Positions 2,363 through 7,740 of a DNA stretch of 64,000 nt are shown here, in pieces. This DNA is from a virus (lineage: Duplodnaviria > Heunggongvirae > Uroviricota > Caudoviricetes), in the IMG/VR virus record IMGVR_UViG_2675903278_000002. One strand, given 5' to 3'. Position 1 is the stretch's first letter, and each line of letters opens with the position of its first letter. The position numbers and the translations under genes are program-made. The notes below the pieces were generated by a model that was given only the letters and a program-made list of their open reading frames with translations, did not search any database and was not told the DNA's origin.

Positions 2363-3505
2363 ATGTCATATTCAACGTTCCGTTTGGGTGCTAATGATGC
2401 AACCAAAGAGCCTATGTTCCTCGGACAATCTGTCAACGTGGCACGTTACGATCAGCAAAAATACCGTGATTTTGAAAAGTTGATTGAACGTCAATTGTCT
2501 TTCTTCTGGCGGCCGGAAGAAGTTGATATTTCGAGCGATCGTATCGACTTCAACACGAAGCTGCGGGACCACGAACGTCACATTTTTCTGAGCAATCTCC
2601 GTTATCAAACGTTACTCGATTCAGTTCAGGGACGTAGTCCAAATGCAACGCTGCTGCCGCTTATCTCTATTCCTGAACTGGAAACGTGGGTTGAAACGTG
2701 GTCTTTCTCTGAGACTATCCATAGCCGCAGCTACACCCACATTATTCGTGGCATGGTGGACGATCCGAGCATTGTTTTTGACGGTATTGTTACGGATGAA
2801 GAAATCATCAACCGAGCGATCAGTATCTCTGCTGAATATGACAGGCTTTATGGGATGACCTGCGAGCGCCAGTCGTTAGGTGAGAAGGAATTTGAGCGTC
2901 TGTACGTAAATGAATATGGCTGGGAGCCATACCCTTTGCACCGTCAGCTTTTCCGCACGTTGGTGTCCATTAATGCGCTTGAGGCGATCCGTTTCTATGT
3001 AAGTTTTGCATGTACGTTTGCCTTTGGCGAACGGAAGTTGCTTGAGGGTAACACCAAAATTATGCGCTTTATTGCCCGTGATGAAGCTCTGCATTGCGAA
3101 GGAACTGAACGCATGATCCGCTTCATGCGTACCGGTCGCGAAGGTTTATTGTGGAAAGAGATTGCTGCTGATGAAGAAAACGTCATTTACGACACCATGA
3201 AATCAGTCGCCGAACAAGAAATGAACTGGGCAGACTATCTCTTCAAAGACGGTTCGATGATTGGTTTAAACGCGGATATTCTCAAAACCTATGTAAAATA
3301 CCGCACCAATCTGGCTATGAATCGTCTTGGCCTGAAGGCTTTATTTCCAGAGGTTACCACCGATCCGCTGGTCTGGATGAACAAGTGGTTGTTAACCGAC
3401 ACACTGCAAATTGCACCACAAGAGGCAGAGCAAAGCACATATCTGGTAGGTCAGATCGATTCTACCGTGGATAAGGCTTCTCTAAGCCAGTTTGCAGACC
3501 TGTAA
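2363..3505 (+). CDS. nrdB: ribonucleoside-diphosphate reductase beta subunit (NrdB)
   Basis: 380 aa; [48 protein letters not shown] as in class Ia NrdB; directly downstream of nrdA; RBS-like GGAAAAACACATG. Confidence 0.96.
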
Positions 3506-3582: not shown

Positions 3583-4452
3583 ATGAACTTTACCAAACTG
3601 ACTGACCACCTGAAACTTGCCACCGATCGACTCATTGGATTTAAGCCAGAACCATATGAGTTGCATGAAGGCCATGGTGTAGCCACTGAAAGTATTTACA
3701 AGATGGTCGATCAGTTTCATGAACTCTTCCAGCATCCGAGACGCGTTATGCCGACACCAGAGCTGCTTCGTCTCCGTGCAAGCCTGATTCATGAAGAAGC
3801 TGTAGTGGAAGGTATTCCAGCCGCAATGAATGGGGATATTGAGCAACTGCTGGATGCAATGGCCGACTTTTTATACGTTGGTGTTGGTACGATGGTCGCC
3901 ATCAAAGGTGGTATTTCTACCGGCATGACCTATTACACGCAGGAACAGAGCATTGATCGCTTTATGCAGACAATTTTTGTGCCCGGTAACACTGTTTTCG
4001 ATGATATGGCAATGCCATTTCAGGAAGCTCGTGAGGCGTCATGTATGCTCGAAGAGCTGGCAGATAAACTTGAGAACAAGACTGTTAAGGATTCTGAGCT
4101 GATTCAGGAACTGCGCCGTGTCATGAACAAAATCTATGTGGCGTGCATGATGACCTATCGACTGGCTGATTTCCTCGGTATCAATGTAGTCGAGCTGGTT
4201 GGCGAAATTCATCGGTCTAACATGACAAAATTATGGCCTGCTGATGTTGAGGAACGTCGCCAGGCTGTGGCCAACTGCAAATACGACTCTTCAGATCTGG
4301 GATTCCGCCATGCTGATGGCACCGATAAGATGATCGGTTTTCGAATTTCCGATGGAAAGATTCTGAAGTCTCCAACCTATAGTGATGTCGATTTATCCTC
4401 CTTTGTTGAGCAAGCTAAAGCCTCAGCAATGTACGGAATGATCAAAAAATAA
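3583..4452 (+). CDS. hypothetical protein, possible MazG-like nucleotide pyrophosphohydrolase
   Basis: 289 aa ORF with RBS (AAGGAAC) in the nucleotide-metabolism module; acidic helical segments with E-x-x-E/D spacing; function is a guess. Confidence 0.7.
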   Translation: MNFTKLTDHLKLATDRLIGFKPEPYELHEGHGVATESIYKMVDQFHELFQHPRRVMPTPELLRLRASLIHEEAVVEGIPAAMNGDIEQLLDAMADFLYVGVGTMVAIKGGISTGMTYYTQEQSIDRFMQTIFVPGNTVFDDMAMPFQEAREASCMLEELADKLENKTVKDSELIQELRRVMNKIYVACMMTYRLADFLGINVVELVGEIHRSNMTKLWPADVEERRQAVANCKYDSSDLGFRHADGTDKMIGFRISDGKILKSPTYSDVDLSSFVEQAKASAMYGMIKK

Positions 4453-4620
4453 TTGTAGGTAGTTATCTATCTGTGTATATTGCGTTGGCGCGTTAAATTT
4501 CTGAAACAACTATTCGTTTTTGGTGGCCTATGGCCACCATTTTTTTATCTGTCTGGTCTTGTTCTCTCAATAAATGTAAACTCACGCAATGAATAAGTGG
4601 TTACTTATCTTTGTGAGGTT

Positions 4621-5727
4621 TTTGTGTCACTCCTTTTGAATCGTGAGCATACGAACGGTCAGGTAACAAACGCATCGTATGCAAAAGTTATTGAGACGGT
4701 GCTTAAAAGCGGCGTGCAGGCTGATGATCGCACAGGCACTGGTACTTTAAGCACCTGCTACGTTCCCTCTTACTACATGCTTACTGGTGGGACTGTGCCG
4801 CTTATTTCTGGAAAGGCGGTAAATCTTAAGCCACTGCTTGTCGAACTTGAGTGGTATCTGAAAGGCACGGGCAACATCCAATTTCTCAAGGATAACGGCG
4901 TTAAGATTTGGGATGCATGGGCCGATGAGAATGGCGATTTGGGGCCGGTTTACGGTAAGCAGTGGCGTCGATGGGAAGATACCCGCATCGTGAGCCATAG
5001 TGAATATCTGAGCAAGATCGCTACTTTCCGTGAACGCGGGTACAAAGTCGAGGGATACCTGGGTATCAGTGAAGATCGCGTAGTGCTGTCCCGTGAAATC
5101 GATCAGCTACAGCGTATTGTCGATACACTGCGCACGAACCCTACCGATCGTCGCATCATGCTTAACGCATGGAACGTAGGCGAGCTTGAGGATATGAAAC
5201 TGCCACCTTGCCACTTTGTCTTCTCTTTGTGGAGTCGTGAGCTGGATTTTGAAACCCGTTTAACGATGGCAACTGACATTGGTCTTCAACACAGTCGCCT
5301 CGGTTATGAGTCTATCTACACCAAGATGCTATACGATCTGGAGATGGACGGCAGTGTTACTGAAACTGAACTGGATGAACTTGGAATCCCCAAACGCATC
5401 CTCAACTCCTGCCTCGTACAGCGTAGCGTAGACACTTTTGTTGGTATGCCATTCAATATTGCTGGCTATGGCATTCTCACTCATTTTCTCGCGAAGATTA
5501 CGGGTCACATGGCCGGTGCATTTGTGCATTTTGGCTTTGACGTGCATTTATACAATAACCACATGGAAAGTGTGTGTGAGCTAATGAAACGACAGGCTCC
5601 AGAGCATTCAGATCCGGTCGTTATTTTCCCTCATGAATGGTCTGAGCTGGATGATTTCAAATGGGACGATATTCTGATTCTTGGCTATGACCCTCTACCG
5701 TGGATCAAGGTTCCAGTGGCGGTGTGA
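4621..5727 (+). CDS. thyA: thymidylate synthase family protein (ThyA-like) with ~100-aa insertion
   Basis: DRTGTGTLS, GDLGPVYGKQWRRWE, catalytic LPPCHF, insertion before it; adjacent DHFR favours a true thymidylate synthase; track ORF starts at GTG 4597, GTG 4621 with GAGG upstream preferred. Confidence 0.85.
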   Translation, partial: FVSLLLNREHTNGQVTNASYAKVIETVLKSGVQADDRTGTGTLSTCYVPSYYMLTGGTVPLISGKAVNLKPLLVELEWYLKGTGNIQFLKDNGVKIWDAWADENGDLGPVYGKQWRRWEDTRIVSHSEYLSKIATFRERGYKVEGYLGISEDRVVLSREIDQLQRIVDTLRTNPTDRRIMLNAWNVGELEDMKLPPCHFVFSLWSRELDFETRLTMATDIGLQHSRLGYESIYTKMLYDLEMDGSVTETELDELGIPKRILNSCLVQRSVDTFVGMPFNIAGYGILTHFLAKITGHMAGAFVHFGFDVHLYNNHMESVCELMKRQAPEHSDPVVIFPHEWSELDDFKWDDILILGYDPLPWIKVPVAV

Positions 5728-5728
5728 T

Positions 5729-6142
5729 ATGGCAAGAGGTATGTATGTCTTATGCGAAATTGAAGGTGTGCTGGCAAATGCCAGCCATCGTAAATCAGTA
5801 TCTGACGCGGATGCAGGCCAGCTCATTGCCGGTGATGAACTCATTTTCCCCACCAGCCGTATGTTGCGTGGTTTTGCTCGCTCAGGGGCTGAAGTGGTGC
5901 TTATCAGTAGCCGCTCTGAAACTCTTGAAGCGCCAACTAAACGATGGCTGAAAGATTTTGGCGTTGATTATGACTGGCTTCATCTCGTACCGAATGGCAC
6001 CAGTTATGAGAAGCATATTAAGCGCACATTAGCGGAGCATAAAGGCGATCTGCTTATCGCTGCGCTGGTGCACGATCCTCGACTCCGTGCCGCTTTAGCC
6101 GACTCTCACCATCGACCGGTCATCTATGAGGTGAGCAAATGA
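5729..6142 (+). CDS. hypothetical protein
   Basis: ATG one codon after thyA stop, in frame with track ORF 5681..6142; overlaps DHFR start by 4 nt (translational coupling). Confidence 0.55.
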   Translation: MARGMYVLCEIEGVLANASHRKSVSDADAGQLIAGDELIFPTSRMLRGFARSGAEVVLISSRSETLEAPTKRWLKDFGVDYDWLHLVPNGTSYEKHIKRTLAEHKGDLLIAALVHDPRLRAALADSHHRPVIYEVSK

Positions 6143-6615
6143 AGATGATCGCTGCTGTTGGCCGTAACTATGAGATCGGCATAGCGAATGAACTCCCCTG
6201 GCGTTGTTCTACCGATCTGAAGCTATTTAAGAGACTCACCAAAAACGCCACTGTCGTTATGGGGCGTAAAACGATGGAAAGTCTCAAACGCCCTCTTCCA
6301 GAGCGTCATAACCTCGTTTTGACGCGCTCTCATGGCTTTGTACCAAATGGATTCTACCCTGCTGGTGTGGATGATGTGTTGCGATTACCAGAGCCTGTGT
6401 GGGTGATTGGCGGGGAACAAATTTACTCGCTATTCATGCCGCATGTTGAAGAGATTTGGCTCTCCCACATCGGCGTTGATGTGCCAAACGCCGATGCATT
6501 CTTCCCGGCAAGCATGATGCGTAATTTAGGCTTTGTGCCTGTTGAAACAGCTTATACCCAACGAGCCAGCGAGGAAGAGCCTGGCTTTTCGCAGATCGTA
6601 TACAGAAGGTCGTAA
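6139..6615 (+). CDS. folA: dihydrofolate reductase
   Basis: 158 aa; MIAAVGRNYEIGIANELPW and VMGRKTMESL are typical type I DHFR; coupled to flanking genes. Confidence 0.92.
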   Translation: MKMIAAVGRNYEIGIANELPWRCSTDLKLFKRLTKNATVVMGRKTMESLKRPLPERHNLVLTRSHGFVPNGFYPAGVDDVLRLPEPVWVIGGEQIYSLFMPHVEEIWLSHIGVDVPNADAFFPASMMRNLGFVPVETAYTQRASEEEPGFSQIVYRRS

Positions 6616-7259
6616 TGGATTACCGGATTGGGATCACTGGTGCTCAGGGCAGTGGGAAAACAACCCTGGCTAAATATATCGACAAACATTACGGAATCCC
6701 TTACGTGGATGCTGGTGTCGGAAGTTTGATGAGCCGCCTCGGTGTTCGAGTAGGTGATTCTATGCCTCTATATGAGCGGCTTCAGATTCAAATGGAAATA
6801 GCAAAGCATATAGAGCTACTTACGCGTGGTGTTGAAGGCTTTGTTATCGATCGCACACCTGCTGATGTTATGGCCTACACGTTGGATTTGGTCGGCCATA
6901 CAAATGAAGATCGGTGTATTGAGTTAGCCCTCGATATCGAAAAGTTTTGCCACAAAACTGCTATTTCAAACTTTAACGCCATTGCTGGCTTACGCCCGGG
7001 AGTCGCTCTCTCAGAGCGAGATTACTTGCGATCACAACGAGCATCATTAGACCGTCTGTATGTCGCTCGTATTGATGCGTTGATGTGCGGGGAACTGACA
7101 AAAATTCACCTGCATCCGCAAAGGGGAGATCTGCAAACCTTCGTCGTTTCCAACCGATATCGCACGGTTGAAGCAAGAGCCAGATCAGTGATGAGAATGC
7201 TAGATAACGCTGTAGAAAAGATAGAAAACCGGTTCTGTGGCCGAGTGACCGTTCATTAG
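6615..7259 (+). CDS. P-loop NTPase, putative (deoxy)nucleoside monophosphate kinase
   Basis: 214 aa; Walker A GITGAQGSGKTT near N-terminus; position next to thyA/folA suggests dNMP kinase. Confidence 0.75.
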   Translation: MDYRIGITGAQGSGKTTLAKYIDKHYGIPYVDAGVGSLMSRLGVRVGDSMPLYERLQIQMEIAKHIELLTRGVEGFVIDRTPADVMAYTLDLVGHTNEDRCIELALDIEKFCHKTAISNFNAIAGLRPGVALSERDYLRSQRASLDRLYVARIDALMCGELTKIHLHPQRGDLQTFVVSNRYRTVEARARSVMRMLDNAVEKIENRFCGRVTVH

Positions 7260-7320
7260 AAATTGTTCGCCTCTTCGACATTGCGACAATAAAACTCTCA
7301 AAATGGGTTAAGGATAAAAA

Positions 7321-7740
7321 ATGTTTAGTGAAATGTTGCTTGAAGATGAACTGGATCGGAAAACAACAGAGGCTTTGATTCGTGTAGCGGACGAACATTC
7401 CCGGTCGCTTATGAGCGATCGAGAGGCTCGTCTGGCTATTCGTGCCATATTCGAAACTGCGCAGGGGCTTGTTGGTACACAAGTGGGTGAAGCCATTAAC
7501 ATCGCCATGTCTCAGTTCAGTGAAGGCAGTAAAAAGCCTCTGTTTCCTATGCATTTGATGCTGGCTGGTGGCTCGGTGCTTTATATCTCTGTTTGTCTGG
7601 ATAGCAACCAAATCAATATTCTCAACACTGTGTCAGGTAAGTGGAAAGATCCGATTGTCTGTGAAACCAGTGAAGAAACTTTGAAAAAAGCGGCTCAATT
7701 TGTACGTAGCGCACTACTTAAGGGCGCTAAGAAGTTGTAA
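7321..7740 (+). CDS. hypothetical protein
   Basis: 139 aa ORF, ATG preceded by A-rich RBS region; no recognisable motif. Confidence 0.65.
   Translation: MFSEMLLEDELDRKTTEALIRVADEHSRSLMSDREARLAIRAIFETAQGLVGTQVGEAINIAMSQFSEGSKKPLFPMHLMLAGGSVLYISVCLDSNQINILNTVSGKWKDPIVCETSEETLKKAAQFVRSALLKGAKKL

Follow-up and report, generated by a model that had tools for sequence, protein, structure and literature searches.

The window, a 64,000-nt stretch of phage DNA, carries on its + strand an open reading frame (4624-5727) that very probably encodes a functional ThyA-type thymidylate synthase (TS; EC 2.1.1.45) of an SSU5-like phage-plasmid, with unchanged chemistry, peripheral inserts, and a place in a dTMP cycle with a nearby dihydrofolate reductase (DHFR). 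Over 4400-5900 the DNA shares 97-99% identity with the Escherichia phages CMS-2020a, Cyrano, and PhiR41_1, and 79% with SSU5; this identity and the gene order mark the window as an SSU5-like phage-plasmid of E. coli. Hundreds of public records already label the gene a thymidylate synthase, and TS enzymes with insertions are a known phenomenon. Our analysis corrects the annotation to a normal ThyA with a GTG start at 4624, and draws attention to one insert, here called insert B, that is uncharacterised and is common rather than specific to the window. This widespread embellishment of phage TS is the main biological question raised by the gene. The public record of Cyrano (6224-7327) calls the gene 'ThyX Thymidylate synthase', but its family is ThyA (PF00303), not the flavin-dependent ThyX.

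A single long + strand ORF, listed at 4597-5727 and continuous in its reading frame, fills the interval 4621-5727 in which the preliminary description had placed a TS homologue. That placement is borne out by a 367-aa product, compared with 264 aa in E. coli ThyA, and by its match to PF00303 (266.9 bits against a cut-off of 24.3, E=2e-79). An in-frame TAA lies 5' of the gene at 4594-4596, and the listed ORF has no in-frame ATG before codon 52, which is within the conserved fold, so translation must begin at a codon other than ATG. The GTG start proposed in the preliminary description thus stands, but its coordinate, 4621, does not: the GTG is 3 nt downstream, at 4624, with a Shine-Dalgarno sequence, GAGG (4615-4618), 5 nt 5' of it. 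The thyA coding sequence therefore comprises 367 codons plus TGA at 4624-5727. A 367-aa product from the equivalent of 4624 is annotated in the Cyrano, SSU5, and Klebsiella records. TTG replaces GTG in SSU5 and in Klebsiella phage ST13-OXA48phi12.3, with GAGG kept ahead of it, and in the more distant plasmid pVH1-2-1 the codon is ATG. We also considered GTG 4597 and rejected it as a start; it is without a Shine-Dalgarno sequence and reads GTA in Cyrano.

The product passed the NCBIfam TS equivalog model TIGR03284 (223.3 bits against a cut-off of 108.35) and matched phrog_160 (E=1e-95). The AlphaFold2 monomer model (pLDDT 94.3, pTM 0.92) has the TS fold, with a target-normalised TM-score of 0.94 to E. 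coli TS. Functional residues are kept as in E. coli ThyA, namely Arg36 (E. coli R21), Glu74 (E58), Trp96 and Trp99 (W80 and W83), Tyr110 (Y94), Arg176 and Arg177 (R126 and R127), Cys196 and His197 (C146 and H147), Gln266, Arg267, Ser268, and Asp270 (Q165, R166, S167, and D169), Asn278 (N177), and Asp306, His308, and Tyr310 (D205, H207, and Y209). The arginines that bind the dUMP phosphate (R21, R166, R126', and R127' in E. coli) are thus all present, as Arg36, Arg267, Arg176, and Arg177, and the C-terminus, PVAV, fits the pattern P-V-A-[IV] associated with folate binding and hydride transfer. The catalytic cysteine, which the preliminary description had called intact, is Cys196 (codon 5209-5211); it and His197 lie in an LPPCH motif and are invariant over 49 aligned sequences. 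Across alignments of 38 and 49 sequences the TS-defining residues are invariant, with Gln266 nearly so (at least 90%).

In known TS enzymes the pair equivalent to Arg176/Arg177 reaches the partner's active site; the pair is conserved here, and the protein would presumably be an obligate homodimer with shared active sites. From the conserved residues we infer that the enzyme converts dUMP and methylene-tetrahydrofolate to dTMP and dihydrofolate. Cys196 would attack C6 of dUMP, and methylene-tetrahydrofolate would give first the carbon and then the hydride, leaving dTMP and dihydrofolate. The latter would be re-reduced by the DHFR encoded two genes downstream, and the gene block from nrdA to a kinase-like gene would provide the element with its own dTMP supply.

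The preliminary description had reported one insertion of ~100 aa ahead of the catalytic region. We instead found three pieces: relative to E. coli ThyA, the extra ~100 aa are made up of an N-terminal extension of 15-17 aa, an insert A of +34 aa, and an insert B of +51 aa, and insert A is the only insert to precede Cys196. These additions were placed by MAFFT and by an HMM built from 264-aa TS sequences, which agree with one another, and phmmer against PDB sequences matched E. coli ThyA in three blocks (query residues 18-118, 156-203, and 261-367). All on the + strand, the segments run as follows. The N-terminal extension (residues 1-17, 4624-4674) lies ahead of helix A, is poorly conserved, and has a mean pLDDT of 63 over residues 1-10. 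Core block 1 (residues 18-119, 4675-4980) holds the conserved positions from Arg36 to Tyr110. Insert A (residues 120-155, 4981-5088) follows E. coli residue ~105, in the variable loop 101-107. Core block 2 (residues 156-204, 5089-5235) carries the Arg176/Arg177 pair together with Cys196 and His197, so the catalytic cysteine sits between the two inserts. Insert B (residues 205-259, 5236-5400) follows E. coli residue ~158, downstream of Cys196. Core block 3 (residues 260-367, 5401-5724) contains the Gln266-Arg267-Ser268 run, Asp270, Asn278 (codon 5455-5457), Asp306, His308, Tyr310, and the C-terminal PVAV. E. coli ThyA (PDB 2TSC, 1TYS, and others) is 42-51% identical over the core and shares the catalytic, dUMP-binding, and folate-binding residues and the C-terminus, but lacks the N-terminal extension and both inserts.

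Insert A is not new to solved structures. The chromosomal ThyA of Burkholderiales (PDB 3V8H, from B. thailandensis; NCBIfam NF010393) has a homologous insert with the same site and length and with shared G-[FY] and KV[LV]L motifs, and phmmer aligned 3V8H residues 104-203 through insert A without a gap. In the AlphaFold2 model the insert is predicted to form strands and two short helices (residues 117-159, pLDDT above 90). The Burkholderiales enzyme is the product of a cellular gene and differs from the query elsewhere: its small domain and the region near its C-terminus each carry an insert of their own, and the large insert B is missing, with only 2-3 extra residues at that hairpin, as judged from genomic ThyA sequences.

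The strand of the catalytic cysteine and the strand that follows form a hairpin, whose tip carries insert B. The insert is predicted to fold into three helices (residues 209-225, 231-242, and 247-253) with pLDDT above 90. Its anchors are Arg212 and Pro256, both invariant, along with Asp251 (84%) and Arg258 (87%), and in the jumbo-phage TS enzymes the ends of the insert keep the motifs SRE(L/I)xxxxR and (I/V)P(K/R)R. The two invariant residues and the high-confidence fold argue for a selected function. A counterpart of insert B was not found in PDB structures, the best query-normalised TM-score being 0.71. The insert is acidic throughout the family (mean net charge -3), which makes a role in binding nucleic acid unlikely.

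The closest relatives of the protein are those of other SSU5-like phage-plasmids, comprising SSU5 gp081 (AFL47008.1), Cyrano, CMS-2020a, PhiR41_1, the pHCM2-type plasmids, and Klebsiella phage ST13-OXA48phi12.3. They have the same 367-aa architecture and the same neighbours with no substantive difference, and protein identity is 98-99.5% in the Escherichia elements, 87% in SSU5, and 77% in the Klebsiella elements. By tblastn, a TS at 60% identity or more is present in ~726 PLSDB plasmids, nearly all of them non-mobilizable and ~100-115 kb in size. At greater distance, jumbo phages of the SPN3US type, Erwinia phages Machina, Huxley, and Wellington, and Cronobacter phage CR5 encode TS enzymes of ~340-355 aa that have inserts A and B at the same sites; their overall identity is 38-41% and their genomic neighbourhood differs. 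Pseudomonas jumbo phage 201phi2-1 has a 457-aa TS with both inserts and further ones (query-normalised TM-score 0.83), and a metagenomic homologue was found on a 356-kb contig that resembles a jumbo phage.

The TS of SPN3US has a core that is 74-86% identical to E. coli ThyA, far closer than that of the query, and at the DNA level the gene matches chromosomal thyA in three separate stretches with 71% identity. A host-like core bearing both inserts suggests a mosaic history. The annotated ATG of this gene (SPN3US_0229, Salmonella phage SPN3US, locus 4025-5062) trims the beginning of helix A, and a GTG 21 nt upstream yields MKQYLEMMQNILDEG, which matches the N-terminus of E. coli ThyA; the SPN3US enzyme thus probably also starts at GTG.

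To gauge how common the inserts are, a profile search was run over 1.84 billion cluster representatives, and the best 149 new matches were scored for their presence. Inserts A and B occur together in 68 of these 149 metagenomic representatives, B alone in another 40, and A alone in 16. Against its own reading the preliminary description had named two findings taken together, virion DNA with only canonical thymidine and an insertion widely shared by phage ThyA enzymes; the second is largely what the jumbo phages and the 68 representatives with both inserts show. Many TS representatives are longer still, at 400-590 aa (P0125-P0150 and others); the profile matched them in two or three stretches, with gaps of 60-140 aa at site A or in the small domain, or with long N-terminal regions. 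The TS fold evidently accepts insertions and fusions far larger than inserts A and B. The classical cases of insertion are the TS enzymes of L. casei and of eukaryotes, in which surface inserts are tolerated and the chemistry is unchanged. The second eukaryotic insert occupies the same loop as insert A, the eukaryotic inserts being 8-12 aa long, and the 50-aa insert of L. casei is in the small domain (E. coli residues ~84-89), at neither site A nor site B.

As one alternative, the gene could encode a pyrimidine hydroxymethylase or some other base-modifying enzyme of the TS superfamily that supplies a modified nucleotide to phage DNA. Hydroxymethylases do belong to this superfamily and are found in phages, and an accessory gene set accompanies the replacement of dTTP by 5-hydroxymethyl-dUTP (hmdUTP) in some of them (PMC8989533). 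The neighbours of thyA, which include a MazG-like pyrophosphohydrolase, a HAD-like phosphatase homologue, and a kinase-like protein, superficially resemble that set. The residues, however, speak against this reading. In E. coli numbering, N177 and H147 separate dUMP-using from dCMP-using members (PMC8670742), and the query has the dUMP/TS state at both (Asn278 and His197), together with the folate-clamping Trp96 and Trp99, the C-terminal PVAV, and a passing score in the TS equivalog model. We compared it with two hydroxymethylases, which share with it the superfamily and the catalytic Cys, Glu, and Tyr, but which are both without the TS C-terminus and inserts A and B. The dCMP hydroxymethylase of T4, gp42, has Asp179 at the N177 position and Thr149, keeps the first Trp (W82) but not the second, and ends early; the Asn278 and PVAV of the query set it apart from enzymes of this type. 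The dUMP hydroxymethylase of SPO1, gp29 (383 aa, its length due to an unrelated long C-terminal domain), has N163 in place of H147 and is missing both folate-site Trp residues; the query, measured against this one reference, retains both Trp residues, the His, and the TS C-terminus. The alignment with ThyA and hydroxymethylases that the preliminary description had called for therefore gave a match to E. coli ThyA at every folate and substrate residue, with none of the gp42 or gp29 substitutions, in keeping with its view that the gene encodes a true TS. It had also pointed to coupling with a DHFR gene, and dfr indeed lies two genes downstream, at 6139-6615. To our knowledge, dihydrofolate arises solely from the TS reaction and not from hydroxymethylation, so a co-encoded DHFR is sensible only if dihydrofolate is made, which again points to TS. 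Taken with these comparisons, we regard a hydroxymethylase or other base-modifying enzyme as very improbable.

For the thymidylate synthase that we favour, the remaining issue is what the inserts do. Typical of the lineage, A and B are in the model independently placed, confidently folded surface insertions that leave the active site unchanged; how they lie relative to the active site and to the dimer interface was deduced from topology. Their role is most likely peripheral, either in stabilising the fold or the dimer or in offering a docking surface. The preliminary description had suggested that the insertion could alter specificity, but the query shares all its substrate and cofactor residues with E. 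coli ThyA and SPN3US carries both inserts on its strongly E. coli-like core, and a change of substrate or product is unlikely. It is possible, although we hold it only tentatively, that the inserts are a functional module that leaves TS chemistry normal and either docks the enzyme within a phage dNTP-synthesis complex, for example to DHFR, ribonucleotide reductase, or the HAD-like protein, or protects it from a host factor. Very divergent phage enzymes have inserts at both sites, as in the cluster representatives above, insert B retains its invariant Arg212 and Pro256, AlphaFold2 is highly confident in both inserts, and SPN3US has kept both on a host-like core, its insert B being 37% identical to that of the query. 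Against such a module, no docking partner was identified, neither insert contains a Pfam domain, the two are found independently of one another, and insert A also occurs in the chromosomal ThyA of Burkholderiales, without the phage partners. The insert sequences also diverge much faster than the core: in distant relatives identity is 0-25% for insert A and 11-22% for insert B, compared with 34-63% over the three core blocks. A narrower proposal, which we consider doubtful, is that insert B is a phage-selected accessory module giving TS a second property in infection, either tethering it into a nucleotide-synthesis complex or evading a host factor. If that were true, SPN3US would mark the inserts as phage additions to a host-type ThyA, grafted onto a nearly E. 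coli-like core. Our literature search for the insertions, or for enzymatic, genetic, or nucleoside-composition work on this protein and close relatives such as the SSU5 or pHCM2 ThyA, turned up annotations alone.

The extra sequence might also be the remnant of a mobile element, whether an intron, an intein, or a homing-endonuclease insertion. Phage TS genes are known hosts of group I introns, as with T4 td, and in some metagenomic relatives site A holds very large additions, of 100-140 aa. The thyA reading frame is nevertheless uninterrupted, a search of 4300-6200 gave no Rfam match at E<=1 and thus no RNA family or intron, and no Pfam match fell in either insert. Both inserts are moreover short (34 and 51 aa), conserved in position across the family, and predicted to fold confidently within the protein. 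We therefore rejected this origin, which strikes us as hardly conceivable, and retain the peripheral surface insertions described above.

The gene lies in a nucleotide-metabolism cluster whose order, nrdA-nrdB-MazG-like-thyA-HAD-like-dfr-kinase-like, is identical in Cyrano, SSU5, and two Klebsiella elements. For pHCM2-type plasmids, the presence of thyA, dhfR, and nrdAB has been on record for a long time (PMC12928451, citing Kidgell 2002). In the window, again on the + strand throughout, the ribonucleotide reductase beta subunit gene nrdB (2363-3505) is followed by the gene for the MazG-like nucleoside triphosphate pyrophosphohydrolase (3583-4452), upstream of thyA. Between the MazG-like gene and thyA is a strong, intrinsic terminator-like hairpin (4521-4546), TGGTGGCC-TAT-GGCCACCA followed by T7, and no sigma-70 consensus promoter was found between this hairpin and the thyA start. 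Transcription of thyA may come from read-through or from a phage-specific promoter. Downstream come the genes for a 137-aa HAD/PNKP phosphatase-domain-like protein (5729-6142; phrog_5387), the 158-aa DHFR (6139-6615), and a P-loop kinase-like protein (6615-7259) with weak matches to (d)NMP and thymidylate kinases. The ATG of the HAD-like gene begins 1 nt after the thyA stop (5725-5731), the dfr start overlaps the preceding stop codon as ATGA (6139-6142), and the last junction overlaps as TAATG (6615). Given these tight or overlapping junctions, translation is probably coupled across the four genes that begin with thyA and end with the kinase-like one.

The DHFR is 90.5% identical to that of SSU5 (AFL47010.1), which is dfrA51, and 77.8% identical to dfrA50. 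The SSU5 enzyme is experimentally active and trimethoprim-insensitive (PMC12217456), and dfrA50 and dfrA51 both entered the literature in 2025 as phage-plasmid genes for trimethoprim resistance. By its identity to dfrA51, the window probably carries a dfrA51-like allele. With TS and a DHFR of this kind, SSU5-like phage-plasmids would have a thymidylate cycle that is self-contained and whose reductase is insensitive to trimethoprim, a point relevant to the effect of these widespread Enterobacterales elements on trimethoprim susceptibility.

Two of the neighbouring proteins have features of their own. In the 289-aa MazG-like protein the Pfam PRA-PH/MazG match is confined to residues 42-106, and the remaining ~180 residues received no Pfam or NCBIfam assignment. 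Homologues of the HAD-like protein are encoded at 7131-7544, 3606-4019, and 3594-4007 of loci L002, L007, and L008. Where motif I (DxDxT) is expected, the HAD-like sequences read C-E-I-E-G in E. coli and SSU5, C-E-I-E-D in Klebsiella, and V-E-L-D-D in pVH1-2-1, with Glu at the nucleophile position in all four.
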